Source: an uncultured Prevotella sp. (GTDB lineage: Bacteria > Bacteroidota > Bacteroidia > Bacteroidales > Bacteroidaceae). Taken from it: a DNA stretch of 64,000 nt. Made by a program: the position numbers and the translations under genes. The stretch covers positions 40,850-104,849 of the forward strand of contig CAKQPF010000001.1 of assembly GCA_934256705.1 (NCBI GenBank), in the 5' to 3' direction. The first letter of the stretch is position 1. Every line of letters begins with the position of its first letter. Shown here piece by piece: positions 40,228-61,984 of the stretch. The notes below the pieces were generated by a model. It made no database searches and had not been told where the DNA came from. It saw nothing but the letters and a program-made list of their open reading frames with translations.

Positions 40228-40275
40228 AGCCCCTGTGTCCGCCGCATCACCGGCGGATAATAAGAATAATAATAA

Positions 40276-42029
<1,754 letters not shown>

Positions 42030-42030
<1 letters not shown>

Positions 42031-42722: not shown

Positions 42723-42797
42723 TGAGAAAAGAAGAGCCACTGTGTCAGCCACGTTACCGGCTGATATAAAAAAACAAAAAAAATAACCACAACAAAT

Positions 42798-43928: not shown

Positions 43929-44052
43929 GCCCAAATATCCCATAGCATTGGTTGCCAGTTGAATAACAAAAACAACTGGCAACCATTCTTCATTTAACAA
44001 GCAGCCACTGTGTCAGCCACGTTACCGGCTGATATCTACATCATCCCGCACA

Positions 44053-44658
44053 ATGAAAATAATAATAATAACCACCCCCGAAATCCGCCAAGGCGAGACC
44101 GCCATCATCAACGCCCTATTCCAGGAAGGCCTCCAGCGCCTCCATCTCCGCAAGCCCTCAGCCACAGCCTCACAGATGGAAGAATACATCAACCAGATAG
44201 CCCCTGCCTACCGCAGCCGAATAGTGCTCCATGACCACCACGACCTCGTCCGCAAGATGCACCTCGGAGGCGTGCACCTCAACTCCCGCAACCCTCTTCC
44301 CCCCACATGGCTGGCAGAAGCCACCCACCCCATCACCATCTCCCGCTCCTGCCACTCCATAGCAGAAGCCCGCGAGCAACTCCCCCACTCCGACTACATC
44401 TTCCTGAGCCCCATCTTCGACAGCATCTCAAAGCAGGGCTACCACTCCGCCTACACCGAAGCCGAGCTCCGTCAAGCCGCCGAAGAAGGCATCCTCACCG
44501 CAAAGACCTACGCATTGGGAGGCATCTCCCTCACCAATCTCCCCATTCTCCACCGCCTCGGATTCCAAGGTGCCGCCATCCTCGGCGACCTCTGGTCCCG
44601 TCCCATCCCCGCCATCCTCCCCCATTTCCGCGCCTATCTCTCCGCTATCAAGGGATAG
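44053..44658 (+). CDS. Thiamine-phosphate synthase family protein, second copy (TenI-like)
   Basis: 201 aa ThiE/TenI fold. Last gene of the thi cluster, as in other Bacteroides thiSEGCHF-tenI operons. Confidence 0.75.
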   Translation: MKIIIITTPEIRQGETAIINALFQEGLQRLHLRKPSATASQMEEYINQIAPAYRSRIVLHDHHDLVRKMHLGGVHLNSRNPLPPTWLAEATHPITISRSCHSIAEAREQLPHSDYIFLSPIFDSISKQGYHSAYTEAELRQAAEEGILTAKTYALGGISLTNLPILHRLGFQGAAILGDLWSRPIPAILPHFRAYLSAIKG

Positions 44659-45276: not shown

Positions 45277-46611
45277 ATGATAAACAAGATTTTATCTCTC
45301 ATCACAGTATGTATCGGTATGGCATGGCTTTCGTCATGCGGTTCATCAGCCAGAGTGGACGACATGAGCAACATCGGCGCATTCCACAAATACAGTTCAA
45401 TCAAGGAAGCCAACGTCCTCGCCACTGACGACAAGGGCGACGGCGGCGCAGTAGTGGACCTTTACATCGACTACTCCGACTGCATGACCACCGCAAACGA
45501 GTCTCCTTACTACAAGAGCGTGCAGCCTGCCATCATAGCATGCAACCCTAACTACTACTCCATCAAGGGCAATACCATCACATTCGAGTCCAACGACAAG
45601 ATGAAGGTGCACCAGTTGCTCAACTCCATCACCAACGTGGATTTTTCCAACATCAAGGGCGCGGTGGACAGCATCATCAAAAACCGCCACGAAGCCATGA
45701 TCATCACCGACGGTGAATTCTACCAGCAGGGCATCGGAGCAAACCTCAACAACCCTTACCTCGCCGACGAATTCAAGCAGTGGCTCGGCATGGGCCTCGA
45801 TGTCTATGTCTATAGCGAGCCTTACCAGTCCGGCAAGTTCGTGAAAAACCGCTATTACATGCTCTTCACCGACCATCGCCTCAACAACAACATACAGCAG
45901 ATATTCTCACGCGTGGCTCCAAGCCAGGCTGACGTGAAGATGGTGCACCTCTACAGCGGCATCCCTTCTGCCAAGGTGGGCAAGGACGGCGTGGACCTCA
46001 ACGAGCAGCTGCTCGCCACTGACGAGAAGGAAATCAACCAGGCTGCAGGCTACGAATGGCATATCCTCGACGAGAAATGGACCAATGTCTTCGACTATAT
46101 CCTCAATGCTACTGACGACAACGGCAACCCTGTCAAGGGTGGCGACTACTATCTCAGGGGCATAGACCTCGGCGTGACGGCTGAAGATGCTTACAAGCCA
46201 GCTGAAATAGAGGTGAAATGCTATGAGATCAGCGACCTCTATGATAGCTTCAACCCTTCAGCAAAGAAGAAGGTGGCTCTGCCTGAACCGCTCAAGAACA
46301 TGTTTGTCATCGACGAAGCGGCATGGAAGAGCGGCAAGGTGGTGGTGAAACTCGACCCTGCATTCGACGGCAGTTCGCTGACCGGAAGCAACGGCAACCT
46401 TCTCCGCCTCGACATCTGCGTGAAGGAGTCAAAGGAGAATTTCTCATCCAATCCTGAGATAGGCGACAAGTTCAAGTTCGACTCTCCTTACGGTCTCAAC
46501 ACCTCCGTCTATGAGAGCCTCAAGCAGACCCTCCTCGACCCTGCCATCAGTCCGGAAAAGAGCGGCAACCCTGTCATCTACAGCATCTACCTCTCCACTT
46601 ACGGCAATTAA
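45277..46611 (+). CDS. Lipoprotein with vWA-like (MIDAS) domain (cassette gene 1)
   Basis: Lipoprotein signal LSSCGSS. VVDLYIDYSDCMTT resembles a DxSxS MIDAS motif. AMIITDGEF resembles the conserved vWA LTDG motif. Confidence 0.55.
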   Translation: MINKILSLITVCIGMAWLSSCGSSARVDDMSNIGAFHKYSSIKEANVLATDDKGDGGAVVDLYIDYSDCMTTANESPYYKSVQPAIIACNPNYYSIKGNTITFESNDKMKVHQLLNSITNVDFSNIKGAVDSIIKNRHEAMIITDGEFYQQGIGANLNNPYLADEFKQWLGMGLDVYVYSEPYQSGKFVKNRYYMLFTDHRLNNNIQQIFSRVAPSQADVKMVHLYSGIPSAKVGKDGVDLNEQLLATDEKEINQAAGYEWHILDEKWTNVFDYILNATDDNGNPVKGGDYYLRGIDLGVTAEDAYKPAEIEVKCYEISDLYDSFNPSAKKKVALPEPLKNMFVIDEAAWKSGKVVVKLDPAFDGSSLTGSNGNLLRLDICVKESKENFSSNPEIGDKFKFDSPYGLNTSVYESLKQTLLDPAISPEKSGNPVIYSIYLSTYGN

Positions 46612-46797: not shown

Positions 46798-47187
46798 ATG
46801 GCAAGTTTCTCACAGAACATCACAACGGCAGCGCAGCTCCACTCAGCTGAAACCGCTACCTACCTCATTGACGCAGTAATCGGCGTGGCATTCGTCGTTC
46901 TCATCCTCATCGTGGCTAACATGATCTCATGGCAACCGGGAGCTCACGACCCATCACCTGCCAAGCGCAGAACATGGTTCTGGATATTGGGAGTAGCCAC
47001 ACTGTTCACCAATCTCGCCGTGGATTACTTCAACTGGATGCGCCATATCACAAAGGCACAGTTCACCAGCGAATACACCATCCACATGATTGCAGCCTCT
47101 GTAGTGGGCGTGCTCATCTATGGCATCGTGACTTTCGCCATCTGCAAGATGCAGAAGAAGGACACTAAACTGGCTTCTATGTTTTGA
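46798..47187 (+). CDS. Small 3-TM membrane protein (cassette gene 2)
   Basis: 129 aa with three hydrophobic helices. Confidence 0.5.
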   Translation: MASFSQNITTAAQLHSAETATYLIDAVIGVAFVVLILIVANMISWQPGAHDPSPAKRRTWFWILGVATLFTNLAVDYFNWMRHITKAQFTSEYTIHMIAASVVGVLIYGIVTFAICKMQKKDTKLASMF

Positions 47188-47254
47188 TCTGTCATCTGGT
47201 GGGCTTGATGTTTTATGGTAAAAAAAGACATCCCACCTCTTCACCCCACTTTAT

Positions 47255-47287
47255 TTAACGGTGGCAATTTACAGAACCACCCTAAAA
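47255..47287 (+). promoter_or_regulatory. Conserved 32-nt element with GGTGG-N12-CCACC inverted repeat and Bacteroidetes -7-like box, 14 nt upstream of the FtsZ-like gene
   Basis: ttaacggtggcaatttacagaaccaccctaaa. A near-identical copy, ttaacggtggtaatttatagaaccaccctaaa, lies at 59239-59270, 11 nt upstream of the membrane GTPase gene. Confidence 0.55.
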
Positions 47288-47301
47288 AAGAACCATTACC
47301 T

Positions 47302-48873
47302 ATGAATTCATTCAACGTAATAGCGATAGGAGGAACAGGAATGCGCTGTGCAGAGTCTCTCGTACATCTCTGCTCCATGGGTATGTTTGACAATACCGAG
47401 ATACATCTCCTCGCCCTCGACACCGACTACAAGAACGGAAACTTCAAGAGGCTGAAGACTCTGGTCGATAATTACAACAGCATCACGGCCGACAGGGACG
47501 GCGTCGCTTCCGACACGCTCTTCTCGGCAAAGATTGTATATTACACCTTCAGCCCTGACTATAATGCCGGCACCAACTACGACATCGTGGCGCACTATTC
47601 CGATGCCCAGACATCAACGCACGACGAAGACGGAGTGAAATGGCAGGAAAGCGACCTCGCTGACCTCTTCCTCGACCCTAACGTGCGCAAGATGGACCTC
47701 CAGCATGGCTACCGTGCACAGACGCAGATGGGCTCCATGCTCATGTATCATGCCATCAAGGAAGAGGCATACAAGAACAAGGGAAAAGGCTCCGACCTCG
47801 TCAGATACGTGGAAAACCTTATGACAAACTCTAACCATATCGTGTTCCTCTTCGGTTCGGTATTCGGTGGCACCGGCGCTTCTTCCATCCCTGTGCTCCC
47901 TCGTGCGCTGCAGGAGGCTGCCAAGATAATATCCAAGGATAGCAACGGCGACGTGCTCTCAAATAACTATTTCGGCACCGTCATGCTGACAAACTACTTC
48001 TGTTTCGACGTGCCGAACACGCACGAGGCGGTATATGCCACATCCGACAAGTTTGCGCTCAACTCCCAGGCCGCCCTCTCTTTCTACAATGAGGACGAGA
48101 CAATAAGGGATACCTACAAGAGACTCTACCTCATAGGACGTGACAAACCGCGCAACGTGACCCGACACGAGGCTCAGAGCGTGACGGGAGGCGATGCACA
48201 GCGCAATCCGGAAGACTACATCGAACTGCTCGCCGCTTCCGCCGCCTACGACTTCTACCAGAGCGCACTGGCGCATATGCAGAAGCCGGTATTCGGCAAT
48301 GAGGCGCAGATATACTATCGCACGCTGGCTTCCGACGAGGGCGACTGCCTCACATTCGAGTCTTTCTTCGGAGAAGACAAGGACAAGTTTGCACAGAAAT
48401 GTGGCATCATGATGGCTTCCGCCTTCCTCTTCGGACCGCAGGACTTCGCCAACAACCGCCGTAACCACTCTTCCTTCCAGGCGCTCACAGAGCAGAATGT
48501 CAAGGACATACGCGACTATTTCCGCAAGTTCTATGACCTTGAGGAACTGGACGAGACAGAGCCGGGCAGCGGATGGATCAAGCAGATGCAGGAATCTGCC
48601 ATCGACATCGGCTACAAGGGCTTCCTCTTCGACCAGGCGGCATACAGCACATCTGCCAATTCGGCACGAAAGTTCAAGTACAACGACAAGCTCTTCCCTG
48701 CCGGCTCTGCCTACAAGTACAGCGTCTCGCTCATGAGCAGCGCCTTCGACACGTTCAAGAAGGAGTTTGGCGACACCGTCTTCAGTGACAGCGACAAGAC
48801 TGCCGTCTCCGCTCTCCTGAAGCGCACGTACGATACTTTCACACGTCTTTATGGTTTCACTGTAAAAAACTAA
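47302..48873 (+). CDS. Divergent FtsZ/tubulin-superfamily GTPase (cassette gene 3)
   Basis: N-terminal NVIAIGGTGMRCAESL resembles the FtsZ T1 loop. The segment GSMLMYHAIKEE...NHIVFLFGSVFGGTGASSIPVLPRAL parallels FtsZ GRKAAEES...[26 protein letters not shown] (T4/tubulin signature). The C-terminal ~300 aa are unrelated to the FtsZ C-domain. Confidence 0.6.
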   Translation: MNSFNVIAIGGTGMRCAESLVHLCSMGMFDNTEIHLLALDTDYKNGNFKRLKTLVDNYNSITADRDGVASDTLFSAKIVYYTFSPDYNAGTNYDIVAHYSDAQTSTHDEDGVKWQESDLADLFLDPNVRKMDLQHGYRAQTQMGSMLMYHAIKEEAYKNKGKGSDLVRYVENLMTNSNHIVFLFGSVFGGTGASSIPVLPRALQEAAKIISKDSNGDVLSNNYFGTVMLTNYFCFDVPNTHEAVYATSDKFALNSQAALSFYNEDETIRDTYKRLYLIGRDKPRNVTRHEAQSVTGGDAQRNPEDYIELLAASAAYDFYQSALAHMQKPVFGNEAQIYYRTLASDEGDCLTFESFFGEDKDKFAQKCGIMMASAFLFGPQDFANNRRNHSSFQALTEQNVKDIRDYFRKFYDLEELDETEPGSGWIKQMQESAIDIGYKGFLFDQAAYSTSANSARKFKYNDKLFPAGSAYKYSVSLMSSAFDTFKKEFGDTVFSDSDKTAVSALLKRTYDTFTRLYGFTVKN

Positions 48874-48883
48874 TCACTGAATC

Positions 48884-51800
48884 ATGGCAATTACAAGCAA
48901 CCTTTTACCAAAGTGCCTGAAAGGTCACGATACTCAGATGGCAAAGCCCAACACCTGGCAGAAGATGGAGCAGGCCCGACAGTTTATCGACAGCATCGAT
49001 ACCACGGGCGGAGAAATGGACGAAACCGCCAAATTCAATCTCCTCGTCTCCAGTGTGCCATCACCTTGGGCAAGAGTTCATCTCACCCAGCACGCCATCA
49101 TGCCCGGCAATGAAGCCGGCGACACACGCACTCTGACACAGTTCTACGCCTTCATGCGAAGCGAATGGCGCGGACTCATCGCTGCATACGTACTCTATCC
49201 TGAGGACTTCGAACTGACAGACCCTATCGACCTCGTGCCTAAGGACATGGCAAGCAGGTCAGGACAGTTCGACATCCTCAGCACCTACTCCGAGATGCTC
49301 TTCGAGAATGCTCCGCTCTGGAAGCACCAGAAGGGCGATAAGGAGAAGCCAAGGATGCAGTTGCTCTATTATCACAACGGTGACAACCGATTCGTCATCG
49401 GTGGCACTTCGCCGTTCAGCATCCTCTTCGCTGGCATGAACTACAGCATTCCTGACGATGACCAGAGGATATACTGGGTAAACGGCGGCAAGCTCCAGGA
49501 CCCTGCATCCAGGGAATACGAGACTTACTACAAGAAAGACGGTGCCAAATACAACGACAAGCACTTCAACAACCTCAAGAAGCTCTATTCCTTCCTCAAC
49601 GGCATCCAGAAGAATTCCGCTGAATACGTCAATACGCTCAAGAGCATCTGGGACACTGACCATAAACTGATTGACCAGCCGAGCACCACTGATGCAAGAT
49701 ACCATATCATAGGCATGGTGCTCAATGGTGCCGTGGCAAGCTGGATGGACGACATAAAGAGTATTCTCGGCAACGCAATAGCAGAGAAGGCAAAGAACAT
49801 TCCTGTCAACCACAAGCGTCCGGAAGGTCCTCTTGGACAACTGCTTGACATCAAGGCGAAATACTATTGGAGAAATGGCATCTTCTACACCAAGCCGATT
49901 GAGACCGCCAATGTCGTGGCGGAGGTCAAAGATGTGGTGGTGGAAAATGTGGAAAGCCTCTTCATCGACAGCGACTATCTGGCAGGATGGCGCGACTGTG
50001 CCGTGCCTTCCACCGACAATATGGGCAGAGCCACGGCAAGGATGGAAAACGACTACCGCATGTCTCCTGTCCATTTCCTCACCGCCATCGACGAGCAGGA
50101 CGGCAAGACATGGTTCTTTGCCGTGCCGTTCAGTGAGTTCGCACTCATGGATGTATTCAAGCAGGAGTTTGAATCCATCATCAAGGGACTTAACAAGAAC
50201 GTCATCGTCAAGGCGGAAATAAACGGCAAAAGGGTAGATGTATATCTCAAGGCACGCATCGACGGAGAGGGCGAATGGATCAACATACGCAACCGCTCAT
50301 TCAACATCGAGGTGCCTAACTCCACAAGGAAGGTATTCGCATGGCCTAACTTCTGCTCTTCCAAATGGCAGAAGTACTACTATTACAGCGAATTCCCTAC
50401 CAATGCCACCACCGATGTGCAGATGGTGCCGGTGTTTGATGAAATCGCTGACATAGAGGACAGCAACATGCTTAGCAAGGTCTCCAAGGAGGCATTCCTC
50501 AAAATGGTGAAATATCCTGCCACAGCAACGTCCGACACCCATGCATACGAAATAATAAGGACCAACAAACCGCTGAGACGCATCAAGATACGCAAGTGCA
50601 TAGGCAATTCCGTAAGCGAACTCGGATGGCTTGTATTGCGCAGGGTGCAGTACAACAATCCTGACGAGCCGCGGGGCATACAGGTCATCAGAGACACAGA
50701 CAAGTTCTCCGGCACCACCGTGGGATTCGACTTCGGCAGCACCAACTCATGCGCCTACTACTCAGGTCAGGACGCAAATGACATACGTCCGGTTCCGTTC
50801 TCCAACAGAAGACTCGCGATTATCGGCTTCGACAACAAGCCGGTGTTCACAGCGGAGCCTAACGAACTCCTCTTCATCTCCAACGAAGAGCCACGCAACA
50901 AGAACGGACAGATAAAATCATGGCTGCATGAGCACGACCAGATGTTCATCGACCCTAACATGATGGGCGAGGAACTCATCGGCGGCGTGCCTGTCAATGA
51001 GACAAACATCACCGTCAAGAGCATGACTCCTTACGAGATCACCACCAATGCCGGCAAGCTGCATTACAACATGAAGTGGCTCGTGGACTCTGACGGAAGC
51101 CGCAGAAAGGCAGCGTTCGTCAAGATGGTATGGATACAGATATGCGCCGACCTCTTCGCTGAAGGGCTTTATCCAAAGACGCTCAACTGGTCTTACCCAA
51201 GCGCTATGGGCGCAAATGACATGAGTGCATTGCAGAGCATCTACGCTGGCATTCCTTCACCATGTCCTGAATACAAACTTGATGACAGGGAGAAATTCTC
51301 CTTCACCGAGGCTGAAGCCGTCTGCTCATACTTCCTCGACAAGCGAATAGCTCTCGCAGACTACAATCTCTTCGTGGGTATCGACATTGGCGGTTCCACA
51401 TCCGACATCCTCGTGCTCGGCAAGGACACACAGGATTACTGCAACGGACAGCCTGAGACAGCCAAGCCTACCGAACCGCAGCCACAGCCTAAACCGCAAC
51501 CACAGGCGGCTCCTGCCATCAATTATGATGACTATGGCAGGAATGAGCTGGCTGATTTGGCATTCAAGCGCGGGCTCGCCACTGAGAGGGAACTGGACGA
51601 CATGGGCAGAAAGGACATCGTGGAACTGCTCAAGGCCAACGATTCCGGACAGCCAAATTACGACGACATGAGCCGCAGCGAGCTTTGCAAGGAAGTACGC
51701 CGCCTCGGTCTGGAGCATCTCATCGACCTCGAAGAGGTGAGCAGGAGCGAGATAGTGGAATTCCTCAAGAAACATTCCGGCACGCAGTCCATCGACTATA

Positions 51801-53095
51801 CCGCCATGAGCCGCAAGGAACTCTGTGACCTTGTGCGCCAACGCGGACTGGAACACCTCATCGACCTCGAAGAGGCTGGCAAGACGGACATCATCAATTT
51901 CCTTAAGGCGCACGAGACTGCTGCCGCTCCCCAGCCTGTCACTACAGCCGCTCCGGAGCCTCGACAGCAGACCAGAAGTACCGCTCCCACACGCAATGAA
52001 CGTGAAAAGACCGACGGCAGACTCTACACCCAGTGCTCTGTACGCATGGCAGCTGGCGTGTTCTTCGATGCCATCATCGACTCCAAGAAGTTCCGTGACT
52101 GCATCAGGAGTTTCCACGCTTCAAGGACTACCGACATCAAGGTGGAGGACATCGACAGCATCGAGGTGGACAAACTCAGAGCTCCTTATTATCTGAACAA
52201 CATCTTCGACCAGCTGCACGGCGACCAGGACTTCAAGAAGTTCTACGAATACCTCAAGATCGACGTGCCGTTCGTGTTCTCTCTCCCTGCCTACATCGTG
52301 GGCGCGCTCATGGCTTACTCGGGCATGCTCGTCAGAAACGCCATCATCACGCAGAGGATGGACAAGGTGGAAGAGGTGCATTTCCGCTACTTCGGCAAGG
52401 GTGGCCGTCTCTTCGAGTGGCTCTTCTTCACATTCGAGAAGGAGAAAGTGGAGGCTTATCTCGATGCTTGCTTCGAGGTGGGCATAAAGAATTCCGCCAT
52501 CAACGAGGCGCTCCACCGCAGTGATGACTTCGCCATCAGGTGCATATATGACAACTGCAACGAGTATAACTACGGCTGCAACGAAAACTCCGAGAACAAA
52601 TCCGAGGTGGCACGCGGTCTCGTATCACGTCATGAGATCACCGGCATCCAGCCTAACCGCAAGAATATCTACGGCAAGCGAAGCGACAAGGCGAAGAATG
52701 AATATGACGCACGCAAACAGGAGGTTATCGGTGAGGTGGGCATCAAGCTCAATGGCGTGGAGCAGGATGAGCTTTCTCTCGTCAATGACAACTTCTATGA
52801 GAGCAAGGAAGCTATATCCTTGCCGCGCACATTCCATAATTTCTCCGAATTCATGGAGATATTCCTGCAGTTTATAGGCAAAGAGGCTGCTCTCATTCAA
52901 ACAAAAGAACTTGAAGAGAAGATTGACAACGTGGAGAATGTGTGGAGTTTCATCATTAACGACCCTGAATACAAGAAGTACCTCGCAAACATCATCAAAA
53001 ACAATGATGACTCTTACCGTATGCCTGTATTCATCGCCACTGCCCTCTATTACCTCGAAGAGGTGCTGCTGAAGGAAGTCTTTGCTACCAATTGA
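48884..53095 (+). CDS. 1403-aa protein with Hsp70/actin-fold (ASKHA) ATPase core and three inserted HeH/Rho-N-like repeats (cassette gene 4)
   Basis: Phosphate-1-like TVGFDFGSTNSCAYY (compare DnaK IGIDLGTTNSCVAV) at aa ~605. Phosphate-2-like VGIDIGGSTSDILVLG at aa ~830. A PQPQPKPQPQ linker is followed by 3 x ~38-aa repeats (ELADLAFKRGLATERELDDM / ELCKEVRRLGLEHLIDLEE / ELCDLVRQRGLEHLIDLEE). An adenosine-motif-like FGKGGRLFEW comes later. The N-terminal ~590 aa are unassigned. Confidence 0.55.
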   Translation: MAITSNLLPKCLKGHDTQMAKPNTWQKMEQARQFIDSIDTTGGEMDETAKFNLLVSSVPSPWARVHLTQHAIMPGNEAGDTRTLTQFYAFMRSEWRGLIAAYVLYPEDFELTDPIDLVPKDMASRSGQFDILSTYSEMLFENAPLWKHQKGDKEKPRMQLLYYHNGDNRFVIGGTSPFSILFAGMNYSIPDDDQRIYWVNGGKLQDPASREYETYYKKDGAKYNDKHFNNLKKLYSFLNGIQKNSAEYVNTLKSIWDTDHKLIDQPSTTDARYHIIGMVLNGAVASWMDDIKSILGNAIAEKAKNIPVNHKRPEGPLGQLLDIKAKYYWRNGIFYTKPIETANVVAEVKDVVVENVESLFIDSDYLAGWRDCAVPSTDNMGRATARMENDYRMSPVHFLTAIDEQDGKTWFFAVPFSEFALMDVFKQEFESIIKGLNKNVIVKAEINGKRVDVYLKARIDGEGEWINIRNRSFNIEVPNSTRKVFAWPNFCSSKWQKYYYYSEFPTNATTDVQMVPVFDEIADIEDSNMLSKVSKEAFLKMVKYPATATSDTHAYEIIRTNKPLRRIKIRKCIGNSVSELGWLVLRRVQYNNPDEPRGIQVIRDTDKFSGTTVGFDFGSTNSCAYYSGQDANDIRPVPFSNRRLAIIGFDNKPVFTAEPNELLFISNEEPRNKNGQIKSWLHEHDQMFIDPNMMGEELIGGVPVNETNITVKSMTPYEITTNAGKLHYNMKWLVDSDGSRRKAAFVKMVWIQICADLFAEGLYPKTLNWSYPSAMGANDMSALQSIYAGIPSPCPEYKLDDREKFSFTEAEAVCSYFLDKRIALADYNLFVGIDIGGSTSDILVLGKDTQDYCNGQPETAKPTEPQPQPKPQPQAAPAINYDDYGRNELADLAFKRGLATERELDDMGRKDIVELLKANDSGQPNYDDMSRSELCKEVRRLGLEHLIDLEEVSRSEIVEFLKKHSGTQSIDYTAMSRKELCDLVRQRGLEHLIDLEEAGKTDIINFLKAHETAAAPQPVTTAAPEPRQQTRSTAPTRNEREKTDGRLYTQCSVRMAAGVFFDAIIDSKKFRDCIRSFHASRTTDIKVEDIDSIEVDKLRAPYYLNNIFDQLHGDQDFKKFYEYLKIDVPFVFSLPAYIVGALMAYSGMLVRNAIITQRMDKVEEVHFRYFGKGGRLFEWLFFTFEKEKVEAYLDACFEVGIKNSAINEALHRSDDFAIRCIYDNCNEYNYGCNENSENKSEVARGLVSRHEITGIQPNRKNIYGKRSDKAKNEYDARKQEVIGEVGIKLNGVEQDELSLVNDNFYESKEAISLPRTFHNFSEFMEIFLQFIGKEAALIQTKELEEKIDNVENVWSFIINDPEYKKYLANIIKNNDDSYRMPVFIATALYYLEEVLLKEVFATN

Positions 53096-53194: not shown

Positions 53195-55237
53195 ATGGCT
53201 AAATACCTGCAATTATATCTCGACAACGACTACATAATACCCATTGGAATGGGCGACTCAGGCAACGTCAACAAATACGTTGACCAGCAGGCGTCAAGGC
53301 GTATGTGGCTCTTCTTCTCGAATGCCACCAGCAATGGCGCATACAATTCCAGCGAGACCAACAAGGCAAATGCCGAAGCCGGAAAGGAAGGCTTCTTCGG
53401 GAATTTCTGGAACCACATTGCCAAAGCCGACAAAGTGCCGGGCGAACCCTACCTTTTCATCGAGCTGCTCGACCTCTCCGGCATCATCTCCACGCTGAGG
53501 GAATGGGCAAACATGACACTTTTCACGGAGTCACCTGAGGTGGTGCTCCATTTCTCGTCCGTCATACCTCTCAAGGCAAGGCGCGCTTTCGCCGATTACA
53601 TCGAGAAGAAACTGGGCAAGATACGCAGTTACAGCAAGGAAATCAATGACTTGCTCGCAGAGAAGGTGAAATGGGACAACAGTTCCATGACCGCTGCCTT
53701 CGGTGACCAGATGCTCGTCATACAGTCTTCCGGCAATGACATCCTCCTTTCCGTGCAGACATGGTGCGGAGAGCAGTTCATGCAGGGCGACGAAGCCGTC
53801 CGGCTGAAGAAGAAAGGCAGTGAGTTCCTCAAGATGGAGCTCGCCAAGATGGTTGTCGATTTCTATGAGAAAAGCAACAACATGCTCCTGCAGCCGCAGA
53901 AAGAGCAGGAGTATGTCTATCAGATGCAGTTCACTGAGACATGGCTGAAAGGACGGAAAGGCGACAGTGATTTCTGGGTCGATAACTTCCATTACTCGCA
54001 GAATCCGGGCAAGATATACCCGCCTGTACTCATTGACGGCAAGCAGCTCAACCTCATCGAGAAGGAAGCCATACGCAATACCATCAATGCCATATCCAGA
54101 TACAGCAGCGAGAACATACGAAACAACCTCCTGCATACCATCCTTATGGGCGACGTCTTCAGGGAAGAGATCTTCCTGAGAGACTGTGTCAGCGTCACCT
54201 CAAGCGACGGCAAATACACTTTCTTTGACGACAACGCCATTCAGGAGGCTCTCGGACGCTACAATGTAAAATACTCCACGCTGGTGGAGGATCTCCGTGA
54301 CCTGGAGCGCACATACGCCGACAAGGCTAACGAGAGGGCAAGGATAGGCACATACGTGCATAATGCCGAAGAGCTCGGAATGCTGAAGTCTCTCTCCGAA
54401 GAGGCTGAGACGAAGATAAAGAAAGCTTACGACCGTGTCAACGATGCCAACAAGGACCTCAGGGAGTCATGGGATTCCTTGATGCGCCACAGCGACTTCG
54501 AGAAGGCGAAGGACACTATTGCAAAGATGTCCACAAGCGACGAACTGACCATTGCCAAGGCGGAAGCCATGGAGTGCCTGAAATCCATCGAGCAGAAGAA
54601 CTCACTGCTCATCGACCTTCACCAGCTGCTGGAGGTGCGAGACATCGTGGAGAGCATCAGAGGCAGGGAAACGGCCATCAGAACGTATGTCAAGCAGGTG
54701 GACGACCTTCGCGAACTGCCCGACAAGCTCCGTGACCTCGTGAGGAAATATGAGGACATCTACCCCAAGTATCTGGAAGTCAAGTCACAGTTTGACCATG
54801 AGGCGACCCTCGTGGGCAGGCGCAGACTGATAGAAGAGATGAAGCCGCTGACTATGGAACCGATGCCTGTGGTGGATGTAGAGACCATCAAGGGCACCAT
54901 CAGCGTCAAGAGCGAGTCGTCAGGCGGCTTCCTCGGCATAGGAGCGAAGAAGTGCATCACCATCCGTCTCCACATAGACAAGCCGCTCCCGTGCCGTGGT
55001 GTCCTCGTCATTGCTCCGGATGTCATCATCAATATCCCGGACGGAAGATGCGGTATCCACTGCATCGACGTGGAAAAAGGCGAGGAAGGCGATGTCATAG
55101 AGATGAGGACCGACCTCCAGTCGCTCGGTCTGAACAAGTCTGCCAAGTCCCTCTTCATCAAGTTCTGGCCCCACGAAGATGAGAAAGTGCCTATCAACCG
55201 CTTTGAGATCCGCGGCACAGGCACGGTGAAAGTGTGA
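53195..55237 (+). CDS. 680-aa hypothetical protein with central coiled-coil and C-terminal beta-rich domain (cassette gene 5)
   Basis: Heptad-rich helical stretch at aa ~340-540. No recognisable catalytic motif. N-terminal IIPIGMGDSGNV is of unclear significance. Confidence 0.45.
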   Translation: MAKYLQLYLDNDYIIPIGMGDSGNVNKYVDQQASRRMWLFFSNATSNGAYNSSETNKANAEAGKEGFFGNFWNHIAKADKVPGEPYLFIELLDLSGIISTLREWANMTLFTESPEVVLHFSSVIPLKARRAFADYIEKKLGKIRSYSKEINDLLAEKVKWDNSSMTAAFGDQMLVIQSSGNDILLSVQTWCGEQFMQGDEAVRLKKKGSEFLKMELAKMVVDFYEKSNNMLLQPQKEQEYVYQMQFTETWLKGRKGDSDFWVDNFHYSQNPGKIYPPVLIDGKQLNLIEKEAIRNTINAISRYSSENIRNNLLHTILMGDVFREEIFLRDCVSVTSSDGKYTFFDDNAIQEALGRYNVKYSTLVEDLRDLERTYADKANERARIGTYVHNAEELGMLKSLSEEAETKIKKAYDRVNDANKDLRESWDSLMRHSDFEKAKDTIAKMSTSDELTIAKAEAMECLKSIEQKNSLLIDLHQLLEVRDIVESIRGRETAIRTYVKQVDDLRELPDKLRDLVRKYEDIYPKYLEVKSQFDHEATLVGRRRLIEEMKPLTMEPMPVVDVETIKGTISVKSESSGGFLGIGAKKCITIRLHIDKPLPCRGVLVIAPDVIINIPDGRCGIHCIDVEKGEEGDVIEMRTDLQSLGLNKSAKSLFIKFWPHEDEKVPINRFEIRGTGTVKV

Positions 55238-55312: not shown

Positions 55313-56536
55313 ATGGCAAAGACAATATTATGCCCATACTGCTTCGAGTCGTTCAAGAACACCGAGGTTATGGTGCAATGCGAAAACTACACCACACGCA
55401 CCATCGACGGAATGCCGAAGGACGTATGTCAGAGAGAAGAAAACAAGCGTTTCAACAACCATTGGGACAGCATGGTAATGTCAAAGCACGTCTTCTATCC
55501 GCATATCGGACTGAAAGACAAGCTCATGGGCTATAAGCCAAGGGCGTGCGAATGCGACCAGTGCGGCGCTCCATCCACCAGATTCGTATGTCCTCACTGC
55601 AACAACTGGCTGCCTACCGAGATGATCGAGAAAGGCTCTGAAATCATTTCCGTCATAGGCGGTCCGGCAAGCGGCAAGTCAAACTATATCGTAGCCCTCA
55701 TCCAGCAGCTACAGAAGTACGGCTACAAGCTACAGCTCGGACAGATCCTACCGCAGCTCGTGGGCAGGACTAAGGCGGAATATACCCGCAATCTCTATGA
55801 GAAAGCCAAGGACTCCATCTTCAAGGACCATCAGCCAGTGGCTAAGACTGCCGTCACATCCCACCCTATCCCATGGATCTTCCGACTCGAAAGCCACGCC
55901 ACGAAGAAGGCTGTCTATCTCGTCTTCTACGATACAGCAGGCGAGAGTTTCAAGGATCCGGAGGAAATAAAGAAGAATGCCAAATACCTGGAGAAGTCAA
56001 AGGCGGTCATAGTGCTCCTCGACACCCTCTCTCTGCCTTATATCCAGAAGATTCTCGCTGCCAAGAAGATTGTCAATCCCGACAAGGCTACACCGTTCGG
56101 CGAGACCATGGATGCGCTCAAGAACTTCGCCACCGAGAATCCTCAGCTACTCAAGACACCGTTCGCGTTCGTCATGAGCAAGTTCGACTCCGTCATACAG
56201 AACCAGGAAGACCTCGACTTCGACATCGAACCGTTCAAGCACAACAGTTCGTTCATACAGACCGGCACTCTCTCCCTCAGCGAGGTGGACGAGGCAAGCA
56301 AGACCATACAGAACTATATGGAGAACCACTGGGACGAAGGTGCCCTCGGATATGACATCACCCAGAAATGGGGCGACAACGCAAGATTCTTCGGTGTCTC
56401 AGCTCTCGGTGCAATGACTAACGACAAGATGAAGATCGGAATCCCTGACGATGAGCAGGTAAAGCCGTTCAGAGTAATGGACCCACTCATCTGGCTGCTC
56501 CATAAAGTCGGTGGATTCGGCATACCTGTCCAGTAA
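55313..56536 (+). CDS. Zinc-ribbon + Ras-like small GTPase (cassette gene 6)
   Basis: N-terminal CPYC...C...C...CECDQC...CPHC (two CxxC pairs plus extras). G1 VIGGPASGKS, G3 FYDTAGESF (DTAGE as in Ras DTAGQE), G4-like VMSKFD. Confidence 0.6.
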   Translation: MAKTILCPYCFESFKNTEVMVQCENYTTRTIDGMPKDVCQREENKRFNNHWDSMVMSKHVFYPHIGLKDKLMGYKPRACECDQCGAPSTRFVCPHCNNWLPTEMIEKGSEIISVIGGPASGKSNYIVALIQQLQKYGYKLQLGQILPQLVGRTKAEYTRNLYEKAKDSIFKDHQPVAKTAVTSHPIPWIFRLESHATKKAVYLVFYDTAGESFKDPEEIKKNAKYLEKSKAVIVLLDTLSLPYIQKILAAKKIVNPDKATPFGETMDALKNFATENPQLLKTPFAFVMSKFDSVIQNQEDLDFDIEPFKHNSSFIQTGTLSLSEVDEASKTIQNYMENHWDEGALGYDITQKWGDNARFFGVSALGAMTNDKMKIGIPDDEQVKPFRVMDPLIWLLHKVGGFGIPVQ

Positions 56537-56589: not shown

Positions 56590-59061
56590 ATGAAATACTA
56601 TCACGTTATATACAATTCCTCCGAATGCTCAATGCTCGGGGGCACTGGTTTCGGACTGAGAACTGCCACTGAAGGCACGCCTGACTCACTCCTCAAGGCC
56701 ATCGACGCGCTCAATTTCTTTCCTGCCGACGACTGGGAGACATATCAGAACACGCCTACACCGGAGCAGATAATGCAGAATCCGGAGTGCATGGAGAATA
56801 TCCCGATGGACTATGCCGTCACCGCAATCTCTGACGACCAGGGAAACAGATACCATCTCATAGCGAGAAGGGCTTACGTCGGCTTCGACTATTCATTCTA
56901 CAAGACCGGCTCCGCAACGCGTCCGGGAAATTTCGTCATAGACTATTACATCTTCGAACAGGCTCCCGACAGCTCCGCTTACCAGATTCTCTATGAGAAA
57001 GCGCTTCCGGAGTCCAACCATTTCATTCCGGCTTCCGTCAGACCTACTGCCGACAATGAGGAAATGCGCACCATCTCCATCGGCAAGCAGCCGCTGCTGC
57101 CAGTGGAGGACAAGCCTTTCACTGCCGACGTAGAGAACGCCCTCGACAAGGATGTGGTCAAACTCTTCTTCCATTTCCTCGCCGCAAGGCAGGCAGGAAA
57201 GAAGCTATATGTCAAGGCTGACAGACAGCGCGCGCTCAAGATCACAGCAGACTTCTACCGTATGCTCGACGTAAAGTCTGCCACGGAAATACATACTCGC
57301 GTCAACCACCGTGCGGAGGGTCCTAACGAGAACTTCGACATCTACTTCATCCTCGACTCTTATCCGCATCAGGTCTATTCGGGAGGCTTCTACAGCTATA
57401 TCGAGCTCGACTCCGCCACCATGCCCGACACCGACGAGGCAAAGACCTTCAGCCACGAACTGGAGGACTTCGTCTCCGCTTCGTTCTCGGAAAACAAGAG
57501 CGACATCGATGACATCCTACGCTGGCTACTCATGCCGGAATATTCTTCGGTGAAGAAACTCTCCAAGACCACCAACGACGCATTCTTCCTCTACTGCATA
57601 CAGCCGGGAAATTTCTCCTACAGCAATTTCAGAGACAGCCAGGGACGGCTCAATGAAGAGTTCCTCAATGTCCTCATGCCTTACACCAAGAAGGAGAAAA
57701 CCAACGCCAGACTGTTCGACTCTCTCGTCACCGAGACCATCAACGATGCCACATACCAGGACATCATCCTGCTCATCAAGGAGTTCCATAAGTTTGAAGC
57801 CCTCGGCTTTGACATGAAGGAAAACAATGAGGCGGTCAGACAGCACGTCAGCGAGTGCATCCTCACAAGCCCCGACGTGCTCAGAGCCGTGCTCGACAAG
57901 ATAGGATATGACAGCGTGGTGCAGTTCTTCGACAAGGACGTTTTCGAGCGAAACGGCGACTTCACGCTCGCCAAAGTGCTCGATGCGGATATGCTGAAGC
58001 TCTACCGCCACTTCCTCTCCGATGCCGAACTGCGCGACAGGGAGACCATGCTCTACGACCGTTTCCTCGCATGCGGCATGGAGAGCAAGTATCTCATCCC
58101 TATCATCGACGACATCTACGGCGGGGAAAACGACGGCAAACTTCTCTTCTTCATCCATGTGCTCAAGGATGAACAGAAGCCGTTCGGCACCGTATGGCCT
58201 TACATGGAGCATTATCTCCAATCCACACCTTGCCCGGATTTCCTCAAGCTCTTCCAGCATAAGCTCACCGACGGACAGTACGCACCGATGTTCTATTTCT
58301 CCATCAAGGCGCACAAAGCCGACTTCTCGTCCATCGAAAGCATACAGGCACTCACCGATATTCTCCACGGCAACGAGAAACTCAAGGCGCTCATACAGGC
58401 AGGCTACCATCAGGACGGCATATATTCCGACTTCAAGGGCAATGTAAAGACGCTCTATATGCAGCATCATGACAAGGCTCAGGAAGCGCTCACCGCCATA
58501 AATGTCAATATCCTCGGATTCTTCACTGCCGTCAAGGACGACCAGCTCGCAGACCTCGCACTCTACCTCGACATGGTGGCAAACAATGGTTACCAGAGGC
58601 TCCACGAGAGGAAAGTGCCGGTGGTGTTCTCCCTCGTCAGCCTGCTCAATGACGATGAGACGTTCGGACAGATGATTCCTGCATTCGTCAAGGCTTACCA
58701 GAAGGGCGACATCCCTGCCGAAGAGCTTGCCAGACTATATGACAAGTTCAACCACGGCGTAAGCACCGGCGACATGATCGACGACCTCGACGCGAAGCAT
58801 TCCGTACCTATGCTCGGCATCATCATCTGCAAGATGAAGAAAATGCCGTTCGAACAGGCCTATGCCCTCGCCAAAGACCTCGGCATAGACAAGGACACGA
58901 GAGCCAAGGTGATGGAGGAAAACTATCAGAAAGAATACAAGTCATACCTCCGCAGCAAGAAGATAAAAGGATTCTTCAAGTCCATCATACGCATCTTCAT
59001 CCCGGCAGACAAGGACAAGAAGGATGCGAAAGCCAAGGACAATGCCGGAAAAAAGAAGTAG
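56590..59061 (+). CDS. 823-aa alpha-helical hypothetical protein with Lys-rich C-terminal tail (cassette gene 7)
   Basis: No TM segment. N-terminal SMLGGTGFGLRT glycine-rich loop. C-terminal KDKKDAKAKDNAGKKK. Confidence 0.45.
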   Translation: MKYYHVIYNSSECSMLGGTGFGLRTATEGTPDSLLKAIDALNFFPADDWETYQNTPTPEQIMQNPECMENIPMDYAVTAISDDQGNRYHLIARRAYVGFDYSFYKTGSATRPGNFVIDYYIFEQAPDSSAYQILYEKALPESNHFIPASVRPTADNEEMRTISIGKQPLLPVEDKPFTADVENALDKDVVKLFFHFLAARQAGKKLYVKADRQRALKITADFYRMLDVKSATEIHTRVNHRAEGPNENFDIYFILDSYPHQVYSGGFYSYIELDSATMPDTDEAKTFSHELEDFVSASFSENKSDIDDILRWLLMPEYSSVKKLSKTTNDAFFLYCIQPGNFSYSNFRDSQGRLNEEFLNVLMPYTKKEKTNARLFDSLVTETINDATYQDIILLIKEFHKFEALGFDMKENNEAVRQHVSECILTSPDVLRAVLDKIGYDSVVQFFDKDVFERNGDFTLAKVLDADMLKLYRHFLSDAELRDRETMLYDRFLACGMESKYLIPIIDDIYGGENDGKLLFFIHVLKDEQKPFGTVWPYMEHYLQSTPCPDFLKLFQHKLTDGQYAPMFYFSIKAHKADFSSIESIQALTDILHGNEKLKALIQAGYHQDGIYSDFKGNVKTLYMQHHDKAQEALTAINVNILGFFTAVKDDQLADLALYLDMVANNGYQRLHERKVPVVFSLVSLLNDDETFGQMIPAFVKAYQKGDIPAEELARLYDKFNHGVSTGDMIDDLDAKHSVPMLGIIICKMKKMPFEQAYALAKDLGIDKDTRAKVMEENYQKEYKSYLRSKKIKGFFKSIIRIFIPADKDKKDAKAKDNAGKKK

Positions 59062-59281: not shown

Positions 59282-60934
59282 ATGACCAACGCCATATCAA
59301 GCATCATGCCACTCGCGGCAGAGTACAGCCTCGACCAGAACGGTTCGATAGTCATCTGGTCATTCGCCATTCTAAGCGCGATAATCTTCCTCCTCACGTT
59401 CCTTTCCGACATATGGAAGAACATCTGGAGCAATATCGGAGGCGAATATGACGACAACAACATGCGCAGACTGTTCATGTTCAACAAGCAGCCTTACATG
59501 GCAGTGCTCTTCATAGCCGTGTCGCTACTCATATCAGCCCTCATAGCCGGAATATGCCTCTTCATCGTGGGAGGTGCCGGATACCTGCTCCTGTGGCTCG
59601 TCAAACTGCTGATATGGGCGCTTATCATAATAGGATGGATATGCGTCGTGGCTGGCGTACTGTGTCTCATCGGCACCCAGCCCGTCGGATGTCTGCCGCT
59701 CATCATAGGTGGTGTCATAGTATATTTCAGCGACAATCTCAAGGCATTCGCAAATGCCTGTGTAGAAGCAGGTTTCAATTTCTACAGCGCACTCAACGTA
59801 TGGGACCTCGGAATGTTCATGATTTCGGAATACGGCGTAGCATTCCTATGCGTCGTGGCCACTCCGATAGTCATAGGCATCATAGCGGCCGTCATCACAA
59901 TGATCATAGCCGGCATATTCTGGCTCGTGGAGACCATCATGACATCCAGATACAACATCAAGCATCCATGCCCGTTCTGCCATAACCCGTCAGAGCCTGC
60001 CACATATCTCTCGGAAGGCTACGAACTGCCCATCAAGCTCCGCCCTGGAATGTACGGTCTCTTCCACATCAAGCACCCTATCACACAGGAAGAAATGCCT
60101 ACGATGATTCTCAACGGCAGAGACGACCTCGAACGCATCTGCCCGCATTGCAACCGCAGAATAGGCTATCAGACCGGTGTGGAGAAGCACATCGCTTTCG
60201 TGGGTCTCCCTGAGTCCGGAAAGACCTGCCTCACATACCGCTTCGTAGGCAACATGATGAAACGCTATGCGGAAATCACGTTCACCGACAATGTCAGCAA
60301 CGAAGCCAAGCGAATCATAGCAAATATCAAGGAAGGAAAGAAGCAGGAACTCGCTGCCAAGACCAGCGTATCCGACATGAAAAGAAGTCTCCAGATCATC
60401 GTGCCGGGAAAAGGACGAATGCCTTACCATTTCTTCATCAATGACGTGGGCGGAGAACTCTTCACCGACAGCGGTGTTAGGCAGGACTATATGCAGTTCT
60501 TCAAGGACGTGCAGGTAGTCTCCATACTCATAGACCCGTTCACCATGGACTTCTCCGAATACGACATCGACGGTGAATTCGCCAAATGGTACAAGGAGAA
60601 CATCACAGACAAAGGCGTTGCAAAGAAGGAAAAGCTCTCCAATGTCATACAGACCATACAGACCATGTCGCAGCAGTTCACGCACAAGACCGACAAGATA
60701 CACGTCAATCTCATCCTCGTCAAGGCCGACACAGGCTACATACATCGCAAAGACAAGCAGGACGAAGGCAAAATCCGTGACTTCGTGGCACAGCAGATGG
60801 GAATGGCAGGAGAAATCAACAATCTGGAGAATACCTACGCATCACTGCATTTCTATGCCGTCTCTGCCCTGCAGGACACCGGTATCGACCAGATGACCGA
60901 CGGCATCATCGAACAGCTCAAGGTAAAACTGTAA
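59282..60934 (+). CDS. Polytopic membrane protein with cytoplasmic zinc-ribbon + GTPase domain (paralog of 55313-56536; cassette gene 8)
   Basis: About 6 TM helices in aa 20-215. Then HPCPFCHNP...CPHCNRR zinc ribbon. G1 GLPESGKT, G3 FINDVGGELF (DVGGE, Arf/G-alpha-like), G4-like LILVKAD. Confidence 0.6.
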   Translation: MTNAISSIMPLAAEYSLDQNGSIVIWSFAILSAIIFLLTFLSDIWKNIWSNIGGEYDDNNMRRLFMFNKQPYMAVLFIAVSLLISALIAGICLFIVGGAGYLLLWLVKLLIWALIIIGWICVVAGVLCLIGTQPVGCLPLIIGGVIVYFSDNLKAFANACVEAGFNFYSALNVWDLGMFMISEYGVAFLCVVATPIVIGIIAAVITMIIAGIFWLVETIMTSRYNIKHPCPFCHNPSEPATYLSEGYELPIKLRPGMYGLFHIKHPITQEEMPTMILNGRDDLERICPHCNRRIGYQTGVEKHIAFVGLPESGKTCLTYRFVGNMMKRYAEITFTDNVSNEAKRIIANIKEGKKQELAAKTSVSDMKRSLQIIVPGKGRMPYHFFINDVGGELFTDSGVRQDYMQFFKDVQVVSILIDPFTMDFSEYDIDGEFAKWYKENITDKGVAKKEKLSNVIQTIQTMSQQFTHKTDKIHVNLILVKADTGYIHRKDKQDEGKIRDFVAQQMGMAGEINNLENTYASLHFYAVSALQDTGIDQMTDGIIEQLKVKL

Positions 60935-60946
60935 CCACCTTACAAA

Positions 60947-61984
60947 ATGCAAGACATCAGCAGCAAAATATTCATCATATACGCCTGGGAGGACACAGCG
61001 AGAGTCAACAGCATTCTCAAGGAATGCGAGTATGAAATCAACGCCAAGCTCACAGCTGACATCGACACCGGCCACTCTCCAATCCTCGAAGACAAGACCA
61101 CAAAAGCCATCGAGGACGCTAAAGTAGTCATGGTATTCATCAGCGATGCAGCAAAGAAGTCAGACTACGTGAAGGCCGCCGTCACATATTCACTCAACGT
61201 AAACAAGAACATCCTCCCCGTCAACATCGACAAGAGAAGCATGTTCAGCTCCATGCCCGAAGAATTCAAATTCAGGGCAAAGCCGTACAACATCAACGAT
61301 GACGAGTCGAAAAACATGCTCATAGCACAACTCAAAGCCACTCTCGGCATCAACATCGAGAATGGAGACGAGTTCGGAACGCTCATCCACATCGTCACTG
61401 ACCGCAACGCCAAGATAATGCGTTACGGCGAAGACCTCGGCACCGCCGAAGCAGGAAAAGACTGCAAGATAAGGCTCGCCAACGGCTACCACCGCCTCGA
61501 ATTCATCGACACCGAAGACCCCTCCATAAGATGCATCGTGCATTACAATGTCGAAGACAATGTCAAGGAGCAGTTTCTCGAAGTGCCTATCATGCTGCGA
61601 TATGAGCAAAAACTCAGAGCCGACGAAAAAGCCAAAAGGGAAGAGGAAATCAAAAGGCAGTTCGACGAACAGAACTACAAGAAAAACCTCGAAATCGAGC
61701 AGCGCAACCGCGAACTGGAACTGAAACAGCGTGAGCGCGAAGCCGAGAGAATACATCAGAAGCAGCTCCAGGCAGCAGAAGAAGAAAGGAAGCGCAAGCA
61801 AAGGGAAGCTGAGGAGGAAGAAAGACAAAGGCAGGAAGAAGAAAGGCAAAGGCAGAAAGAAGAAGAAAAAAAGAAAAACAAGCCAAGCGGCTGTCTCATC
61901 ATCATCCTGATATTCCTCGGCATCGCCTTCCCCATCTCACTAATCTTCTCCATCCCTTATCTCATCTATAAATACAAGGATTAG
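60947..61984 (+). CDS. TIR-domain protein with charged coiled-coil and C-terminal TM anchor (cassette gene 9)
   Basis: KIFIIYAWEDTARV (TIR beta-A-like) and VVMVFISDAAKKSDYVKAAVTYSL (beta-D/alpha-D-like). Then EERQRQEEERQRQKEEEKKK coiled-coil. Terminal GCLIIILIFLGIAFPISLIFSIPYLIY TM helix. Confidence 0.55.
   Translation: MQDISSKIFIIYAWEDTARVNSILKECEYEINAKLTADIDTGHSPILEDKTTKAIEDAKVVMVFISDAAKKSDYVKAAVTYSLNVNKNILPVNIDKRSMFSSMPEEFKFRAKPYNINDDESKNMLIAQLKATLGINIENGDEFGTLIHIVTDRNAKIMRYGEDLGTAEAGKDCKIRLANGYHRLEFIDTEDPSIRCIVHYNVEDNVKEQFLEVPIMLRYEQKLRADEKAKREEEIKRQFDEQNYKKNLEIEQRNRELELKQREREAERIHQKQLQAAEEERKRKQREAEEEERQRQEEERQRQKEEEKKKNKPSGCLIIILIFLGIAFPISLIFSIPYLIYKYKD

Follow-up and report, generated by a model that had tools for sequence, protein, structure and literature searches.

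A giant gene lies in a 64,000-nucleotide stretch of DNA from an uncultured Prevotella species (assembly GCA_934256705.1, contig CAKQPF010000001.1, positions 40,850 to 104,849), and this whole stretch is referred to below as the window. The gene, at window positions 48884..53095 on the forward strand, encodes a protein that is an orphan family in the actin/Hsp70 branch of the ASKHA ATPases, with a complete set of catalytic motifs. It is the obligate partner of a tubulin-like GTPase, within a five-gene membrane-associated cassette. In the window, this cassette forms part of a DO-GTPase system of the GAP1-N2 type, a putative defence operon whose last gene encodes a TIR protein. An initial annotation, made from the sequence alone, had described the giant protein as an Hsp70-like core interrupted by three repeats resembling the helix-extension-helix (HeH)/Rho-N modules, and had proposed an ATPase that senses or clamps nucleic acid. 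Its account of the open reading frame (ORF) and of the motifs was borne out by coordinates and alignments; its interpretation was supported for the ASKHA core but only poorly for a nucleic-acid-sensing insert. The coordinates are collected in Table 1.

Conservation of the catalytic motifs was judged on alignments of 29 and 70 homologs, with identities down to 23%. Throughout both alignments, the invariant residues are G614, D616, F617, G618, S619 and N621 in phosphate-1 (TVGFDFGSTNSCAYY), E809 in connect-1, D834, G836, G837, T839 and D841 in phosphate-2 (VGIDIGGSTSDILVLG), G1171, K1172 and G1173 in the adenosine motif, and K1239, E1241 and G1245 in the connect-2-like motif. Because these residues are invariant down to such low identity, the pattern is far beyond chance. 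The phosphate-1 and phosphate-2 motifs align with their counterparts in BiP, Ssz1, DnaK and MreB, and they follow one another in the order that had been described, with a spacing of 219 rather than ~225 residues. Glu809 falls at the position of the glutamate in the Hsp70 'NEPTAAA' motif (HMMER alignment to Ssz1; hhalign to DnaK residues 175–209), and from these alignments, together with the known features of the family, it is presumably the equivalent of Hsp70 E175 (Hsc70 numbering; E171 in DnaK). Similarly, SENKSEVARGLV resembles, and presumably corresponds to, 'NPDEAVAxGAA' of Hsp70 and 'DPLTCVARGGG' of MreB. As every catalytic motif is intact, the ASKHA domain, which spans residues ~605–1250, can most likely bind ATP and hydrolyse it, and would thereby switch its conformation or assembly state in the manner of Hsp70 and actin-like proteins.

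The fold agrees with the motifs. An AlphaFold2 model covering amino acids 560–1403 was built from a 70-sequence alignment and is confident, with a mean predicted local distance difference test score (pLDDT) of 84.1 and a predicted template modelling score of 0.75. Structure comparison revealed two RNase-H-like lobes with a nucleotide cleft between them, in addition to the phosphate-1, phosphate-2 and adenosine motifs and the acidic residue of connect-1. Both glycine-rich motifs map onto ASKHA phosphate loops, as had been anticipated, and in the model the three motif loops are at the phosphate-1, phosphate-2 and adenosine positions of the actin/Hsp70/sugar-kinase fold. The earlier suggestion that FGKGGRLFEW resembles an adenosine motif also holds, as GKGG sits at the turn from strand to helix and its first three residues are invariant. 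After a long insert the fold resumes, in keeping with the initial annotation: strand 1045–1053 pairs back into its subdomain, and an hhalign alignment to MreB bridges the insert. The 'AAGVFFDAII' helix that follows is the equivalent of GGEDFD in Hsp70 and GGDRFDEAII in MreB (model; hhalign to MreB).

The relationship of the giant protein to Hsp70 requires some care. The top 50 Foldseek matches are Hsp70 nucleotide-binding domains (NBDs) only, and Hsp70 NBDs are also the best matches among PDB sequences; however, identity to the NBDs of DnaK, BiP, Ssz1 and Hsp110 is only 11–17%, and a PDB profile search with the giant family reached an Hsp70 NBD at E 0.03 only. None of the 29 members matches Pfam HSP70 (PF00012) at E ≤ 1, nor does the window protein at E ≤ 0.1, and the members give scattered weak Pfam matches to MreB_Mbl, Hydant_A_N, Alp7A_C and MutL. 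Scans of Pfam, NCBIfam, PADLOC and PHROGs gave no match to the giant protein. Hsp70 NBDs are thus its nearest structural neighbours, yet it is not a member of the Hsp70 family. These structural matches would fit a true chaperone of the Hsp70 family, acting on unfolded client polypeptides, and so would the HSP70 with GrpE and DnaJ that accompanies some GAP1-N2 systems (PMC7159879). Such a chaperone is nevertheless extremely improbable, and already disfavoured. The region after the ATPase (amino acids ~1250–1403) is purely helical by DSSP of the model, so there is no β-sandwich substrate-binding domain of the Hsp70 type; the interdomain linker is also lacking, and Pfam detected neither DnaJ nor GrpE in any of the nine proteins of the operon. 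Instead, the giant protein adds a 600-residue N-terminal region without Hsp70 counterpart, an all-helical IIB-like lobe, a hairpin insert of ~200 amino acids and a helical C-terminal extension.

There are differences from the actin-like proteins of bacteria as well. The giant protein is three to four times the size of MreB, PilM, FtsA, ParM and EutJ and has its novel N-terminal region, and its gene is always beside a tubulin-like gene, never in cell-shape, pilus or plasmid-partition contexts. Residues 1–600 gave a confident structure model and contain conserved aromatic motifs, e.g. WPNFxSxxWxKYYYYSExPxN (amino acids 487–507), with no relative in the PDB. About 40% of the giant protein is a confidently predicted fold without a solved relative.

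The insert lies just behind phosphate-2. The alignment with MreB runs from DIGGSTSDILVLGK directly on to RLYTQCSVRMAAGVFFDAII, with just 'SLNG' of MreB in the place of the insert, and since this alignment bridges the insert, it occupies the turn of the β2–β3 hairpin of subdomain IIA; the model agrees, with strand 840–847, the insert, and then strand 1045–1053. The PQPQPKPQPQ linker noted earlier is at amino acids 865–874, and the tethers on both sides are disordered (pLDDT < 50). Between them, the initial annotation had counted three repeats of ~38 amino acids; the number stands, but the period is 46 amino acids. The repeats are 37–54% identical to each other in protein and 57–64% in DNA. Each is modelled as a helix, an extended linker and a second helix (886–895/909–918, 931–940/954–965 and 977–986/1000–1009) at pLDDT ~87–94, and confidence falls between the repeats, so that the array resembles a string of beads.

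Were these repeats of the HeH/Rho-N/SAP type, they could let the ATPase sense or clamp DNA or RNA, e.g. the nucleic acid of an invader. Their predicted unit of ~40 amino acids has, in the model, a shape compatible with a helix-extension-helix unit. The leucine-rich pattern 'ELxxLxxxRGL...(S/G)RxEIVxFLK' resembles 'SELITLGENMGLENLARMRKQDIIFAILKQH' of Rho, and hhalign places a repeat in register on residues 10–42 of Escherichia coli Rho (residues 1–51 compared) at 34% identity. Furthermore, systems related to the GAP1-N2 type can carry a DNA-binding HRDC domain (PMC7159879). The Rho alignment is, however, non-significant (P 0.029, probability 1.7%); Pfam gave no match of the repeats to Rho_N, SAP, HeH or LEM even at E ≤ 10; a profile of 26 repeats matched no Rho_N, SAP, HeH or LEM structure among PDB sequences; and phmmer, run exhaustively over 1.84 billion cluster representatives, found no relatives outside the giant family. 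The matches from that search were two fragments of the same family and one spurious ankyrin protein, which matches on a 'KDIVELL' helix. In addition, the repeats are acidic rather than basic (20 K+R against 30 D+E over the whole array), they are tandem beads within the loop of an enzyme, and most homologs do not have the insert. Three things speak against nucleic-acid binding, namely the acidic charge, the fact that the insert is dispensable, and the GYF domains that take its place in a sister subgroup. The insert is therefore unlikely to bind nucleic acid, the sensing of nucleic acid is poorly supported, and the nucleic-acid explanation of the whole system is very unlikely.

What the insert might do instead is suggested by its variants. 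The majority form of the loop in homologs is 7–17 residues (proteins of ~1130–1290 amino acids), whereas in the clade of the window it holds three or four copies of the 46-amino-acid repeat, and in the sister subgroup two GYF_2 domains (E 3e-30) with proline-rich linkers between them. GYF domains usually bind proline-rich peptides. The insert is more likely an optional, swappable, tethered module for interaction with proteins or peptides, or an aid to multivalent self-association. Three homologs (P0033, P0034 and P0039) have the GYF_2 pair both separated and flanked by PPxPG-rich linkers, i.e., domain and possible ligand in one loop, and this could drive self-association. The repeat copy number is three or four (P0003, P0010, P0025 and others), with nearly identical copies within some proteins as opposed to 37–54% identity in the window, a pattern that points to repeated duplication or to concerted evolution within the array.

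Table 1. Features of the giant protein and its operon. Positions are those of the window, all features are on the + strand, and counts are over 81 loci.
Feature	Amino acids	Window position	Description
Giant ORF (cassette gene 4)	1–1403	48884..53095	ATG start; N-terminal region, ASKHA ATPase with loop insert, C-terminal helical extension
N-terminal region	1–~600	48884..50683	Helical part, long helical hairpin (225–303), β-rich part (327–600)
Phosphate-1 motif TVGFDFGSTNSCAYY	612–626	50717..50761	Loop between strands 609–616 and 621–627
Connect-1 helix TEAEAVCSYFL	808–818	51305..51337	Invariant Glu809; modelled helix 809–818
Phosphate-2 motif VGIDIGGSTSDILVLG	831–846	51374..51421	Loop between strands 828–835 and 840–847
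Lineage-specific insert	848–1044	51425..52015	β2–β3 hairpin turn of subdomain IIA; Pro/Gln/Ala-rich tethers flank the repeat array
Repeat 1	877–922	51512..51649	Helix-linker-helix, pI 4.47
Repeat 2	923–968	51650..51787	Helix-linker-helix, pI 5.20
Repeat 3	969–1013	51788..51922	Helix-linker-helix, pI 5.11
Resumed ASKHA fold	1045–~1250	52016..52633	Strand RLYTQCSVR, 'AAGVFFDAII' helix, all-helical IIB-like subdomain
Adenosine motif FGKGGRLFEW	1170–1179	52391..52420	Junction of strand 1164–1170 and helix 1172–1183
Connect-2-like motif SENKSEVARGLV	1236–1247	52589..52624	K1239, E1241, G1245 and L1246 invariant; modelled helix 1241–1248
C-terminal helical extension	~1318–1403	52835..53092	From DSSP of the model; no β-sandwich
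Cassette gene 1		45277..46611	444-aa predicted lipoprotein (signal peptide then Cys); homolog in 58 loci
Cassette gene 2		46798..47187	129-aa small membrane protein, ~3 transmembrane segments; tblastn homolog in 41 loci
Cassette gene 3		47215..48873	552-aa tubulin/FtsZ-like GTPase of Tubulin_2 type; ORF ends 10 nt before the giant gene
Cassette gene 5		53195..55237	680-aa protein; coiled-coil tail, TPR in distant homologs
ZnR-DO-GTPase		55313..56536	407 aa; PF19993 E 7.8e-8, 32.7 bits (cut-off 27); PF19975 E 2e-7
GAP1-type protein		56590..59061	823 aa; GAP1-N2 N-terminal domain (window protein alone E 0.05, sub-threshold)
Second DO-GTPase		59282..60934	550 aa; GTPase domain at aa ~304–513; PF19993 E 1.2e-7, 32.0 bits
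TIR protein		60947..61984	345 aa, candidate effector; PF13676 TIR_2 E 4.5e-9, ThsB_TIR E 4.4e-4

Relatives of the giant protein form 81 homolog clusters in a large protein collection, none with an informative name and none with a Pfam domain except for GYF in a few, and at least 359 stretches in species-representative genomes encode one. The best 80 of these stretches, from which the taxonomy was taken, are nearly all from Bacteroidota, and include Prevotella, Segatella copri, Phocaeicola vulgatus, Muribaculaceae, Alistipes, Tannerella, Draconibacterium and Paludibacter.

The most constant companion of the giant gene is the tubulin-like gene. It is directly upstream in 73 of the 81 loci, and as the other eight all end at contig ends, the pairing holds wherever the upstream region is present. 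In the window, the 10-nucleotide gap that had been reported between the two genes is confirmed (the one ORF ends at 48873, the other starts at 48884), and in 70 related loci the gap is mostly 2–22 nucleotides. Of 29 members of the tubulin-like family, 28 match Pfam Tubulin (E 4.6e-6 at best) and 26 match Tubulin_2 (E 1e-6 at best), and the motifs IGGTGMR and GSVFGGTGASS, with IGGTG and GGTGAS within them, are invariant. A PDB sequence-profile search with it was negative; the assignment rests on consistent Pfam matches across the family. The five-gene cassette as a whole is widespread in Bacteroidota. Among its other genes, the one for the lipoprotein encodes ~450 amino acids in the conserved core, and an ORF of ~130 amino acids stands at the position of the small membrane protein in most loci.

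The part of the operon downstream of the cassette consists of the DO-GTPase and GAP1 genes and the TIR gene. The first DO-GTPase carries N-terminal Cys-x2-Cys pairs. Homologs of the GAP1-type protein match GAP1-N2 in 15 of 23 cases (best E 1.3e-8), and three match GAP1-M. The TIR protein is tail-anchored: its N-terminal TIR_2 domain is followed by a middle region, then by a highly charged E/K/R/Q coiled coil of ~90 amino acids, and finally by a C-terminal transmembrane helix. Its gene stands at the end of the operon. Elsewhere, the position after the second GTPase is taken by TPR or TPR-BACON proteins, by unrelated housekeeping genes, or by no recognisable effector; the idea of a variable-effector slot is only partly borne out by the loci compared.

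Systems of this kind were predicted computationally, as GTPase-centric conflict systems, by Kaur, Burroughs, Iyer and Aravind in 2020 (PMC7159879). In that survey, the GAP1-N2 systems are listed mainly for Actinobacteria, Firmicutes, Planctomycetes, Verrucomicrobia and Chloroflexi, their neighbourhoods with tubulin, with HSP70+GrpE and with a kinase are treated as non-overlapping themes, an FNIII-repeat protein is typical, GYF pairs occur in some planctomycete systems, and TIR effectors and Bacteroidetes are placed under the GAP1-N1 systems (PMC7159879). The window resembles GAP1-N2 systems in having a DO-GTPase fused to ZnR, a GAP1 whose N-terminal domain is of the N2 type, a second DO-GTPase, membrane components, tubulin-family and HSP70-like partners, accessory GYF pairs (in the sister subgroup) and a TIR candidate effector. 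It differs in that it belongs to Bacteroidota, in that the tubulin-like and Hsp70-like genes are in one operon, in that the Hsp70-like part is played by a giant orphan ASKHA protein, whose N-terminal region is novel and whose loop insert is modular, in that FNIII, GrpE and DnaJ were not detected, in that the effector is of a kind listed for GAP1-N1, and in that the tubulin/ATPase cassette also exists without any DO-GTPase. The window operon is a Bacteroidota variant of the predicted GTPase-centric conflict systems, containing an undescribed protein family. No later literature on DO-GTPase/GAP1 systems was found.

An older description also bears on the cassette. Makarova and Koonin (2010) connected FtsZl1 tubulin-like genes with divergent GTPases that carry fused Cys-rich modules, and suggested a role in membrane remodelling (PMC2875224). 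The window is similar to these FtsZl1 (Tubulin_2) operons, since it combines a divergent tubulin-like GTPase with divergent P-loop GTPases on Cys-rich zinc modules and with membrane proteins. It is unlike them in lacking the vWA, protein kinase and OmpA partners given there as typical, and the section consulted describes no ASKHA partner (PMC2875224).

Comparison of the loci revealed two types. In type A (~30 loci, including the window), the core cassette is followed by the ZnR-DO-GTPase, GAP1 and the second DO-GTPase. In type B (about half of the loci), the core cassette occurs without DO-GTPase and GAP1, in company with two or three TerD-like proteins of ~190 amino acids, a membrane protein with a CW_7 repeat at its C-terminal end, a P-type cation ATPase of ~1000 amino acids and a TerB-like protein of 125 amino acids; examples are L060:13334-22441, L043:13442-21955 and L073 (Prevotella jejuni DSM 26989). 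The labels TerD-like and TerB-like were given from the look of the sequences, and Pfam did not detect these families in L060, whereas the distant locus L004 has TerD genes detected by Pfam and a PRTase_3 gene nearby. This suggests that type B loci are linked to Ter-type, possibly Ca2+-related, stress systems.

Taken together, these features can be accommodated by a composite explanation, in which the ATPase and the tubulin-like GTPase would build or remodel a membrane-proximal assembly within a GTPase-gated stress or anti-invader response, with the TIR protein as effector and the insert as accessory. The giant protein would be a cytoplasmic, multidomain, ATP-driven switch or assembly subunit, which with the tubulin-like GTPase might form or remodel a nucleotide-dependent complex near the membrane. 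The DO-GTPase/GAP1 pair would gate this complex, which would be the step that sets the threshold for the response or delivers its output, the TIR protein would be the terminal effector in the clade of the window, and the insert, on its flexible tethers, would recruit protein or peptide partners or promote multivalent self-association. This composite explanation is about equally likely to be right or wrong; the ATPase assignment on its own is far more secure.

Several points weigh against the composite explanation. The framework of conflict systems is itself purely computational; the existence of type B loci implies that the ATPase is independent of the GTPase switch; PADLOC gave no match for the giant protein and none of significance for its neighbours; and the FNIII-repeat protein typical of GAP1-N2 (PMC7159879) was not detected, with no fn3 match by Pfam in any operon protein, although a divergent β-sandwich may still be present in the 444-amino-acid lipoprotein. 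Recognisable toxic effectors are rare, the TIR gene being confined to the clade of the window (six of the 81 loci), and this scarcity fits a role in envelope stress or membrane remodelling equally well. Moreover, the same data suit a chaperone-like switch and an actin-like polymer alike, and cannot distinguish between the two. The main rival to the composite explanation is one in which an actin-like filament and the tubulin-like GTPase serve membrane remodelling, vesicle biogenesis or envelope stress, so that the linkage to DO-GTPases and TIR would be secondary and the role not primarily in defence. Both the type B loci and the scarcity of toxins speak for it. Against this stand the Foldseek result, with Hsp70 NBDs only among the top 50, and the content of the window operon, which has TIR, GAP1-N2 and DO-GTPases, the last two having been described only from predicted conflict systems. 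A cytoskeletal or envelope-stress role without a primary part in defence is, on this evidence, rather unlikely.

A bolder reading may also be considered, namely that the tubulin-like GTPase and the giant ASKHA protein constitute an unrecognised membrane-associated co-assembly, using both GTP and ATP, which would itself be the immune or stress output, and in which the swappable insert would be a multivalent hub for higher-order assembly or recruitment of targets. This is a tentative proposal, and doubtful as it stands. It would extend across Bacteroidota, including human-gut Prevotella, Segatella and Phocaeicola, the hub being either the acidic HeH-like beads or the GYF domains beside their own proline-rich linkers. 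If the tubulin-like and actin/Hsp70-like proteins did act as a pair, they would represent a new type of bacterial cytoskeleton-like machinery, tied to stress or immunity.

The locus is of interest for further work in several ways. One computational survey is the only source for DO-GTPase/GAP1 systems that have tubulin and HSP70 partners, and the window locus is a compact, well-bounded example from gut Bacteroidota, with intact enzymatic motifs and a clear structure of core and accessory parts. The activity of the TIR protein at the end of the operon could serve as a measurable read-out. The natural variants of the loop (no insert, repeats, or GYF pairs) provide a ready comparison for the role of the loop module, and the giant ATPase family is unnamed and without a Pfam model, despite its wide occurrence.

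Some further observations concern the neighbouring genes. The family of the 680-amino-acid protein, always encoded behind the giant gene, has lengths of 620–890 amino acids and TPR in 12 of 29 members (PDB profile TPR E 1.6e-7). Its N-terminal ~350 amino acids give a weak Hsp70-NBD signal (mortalin NBD, E 0.004, amino acids ~217–349), and there are also weak Raco_middle matches; as there is no profile-profile similarity between this family and the giant family, it was not accepted as a second ASKHA paralog, and is kept as a lead. In one locus (L052:13641-15701) the ORF after the giant gene is of Hsp90/HtpG type (PF00183, E 7e-49) instead of the coiled-coil/TPR protein, and is probably an unrelated neighbour. 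In a locus with the GYF variant (L086:10001-14215), GAP1 and the second DO-GTPase form one fused protein (1576 amino acids), and a type I restriction-modification system (HsdM/HsdR) is directly upstream. A phage origin of the system is unlikely: the operon proteins have no meaningful PHROG matches, and only 10 IMG/VR contigs (L088–L097, 29–118 kb) carry relatives, which are distant (23–32% identity) and type B-like. Several of these matches are near contig ends and may be host DNA flanking prophages.

The borders of the system in the window are defined by housekeeping genes. A thiamine cluster (ThiG, ThiC, ThiF, a radical-SAM/BATS ThiH-like protein and ThiE) is directly upstream, at 39457-44658, and metH is downstream, as judged from matching metagenome contigs; with the thi operon on one side and metH on the other, the system of ~17 kb is an island between housekeeping genes. 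A scan for sigma-70 promoters and intrinsic terminators gave no enrichment over shuffled sequences, the consensus used being unsuited to Bacteroidota promoters. Between a gene for a 130-amino-acid lipoprotein (62165-62557) and metH there is a hairpin at 62681-62727, with a stem of 20 base pairs (eight of them G-C) and a loop of seven nucleotides, which may be a bidirectional terminator at the end of the island.

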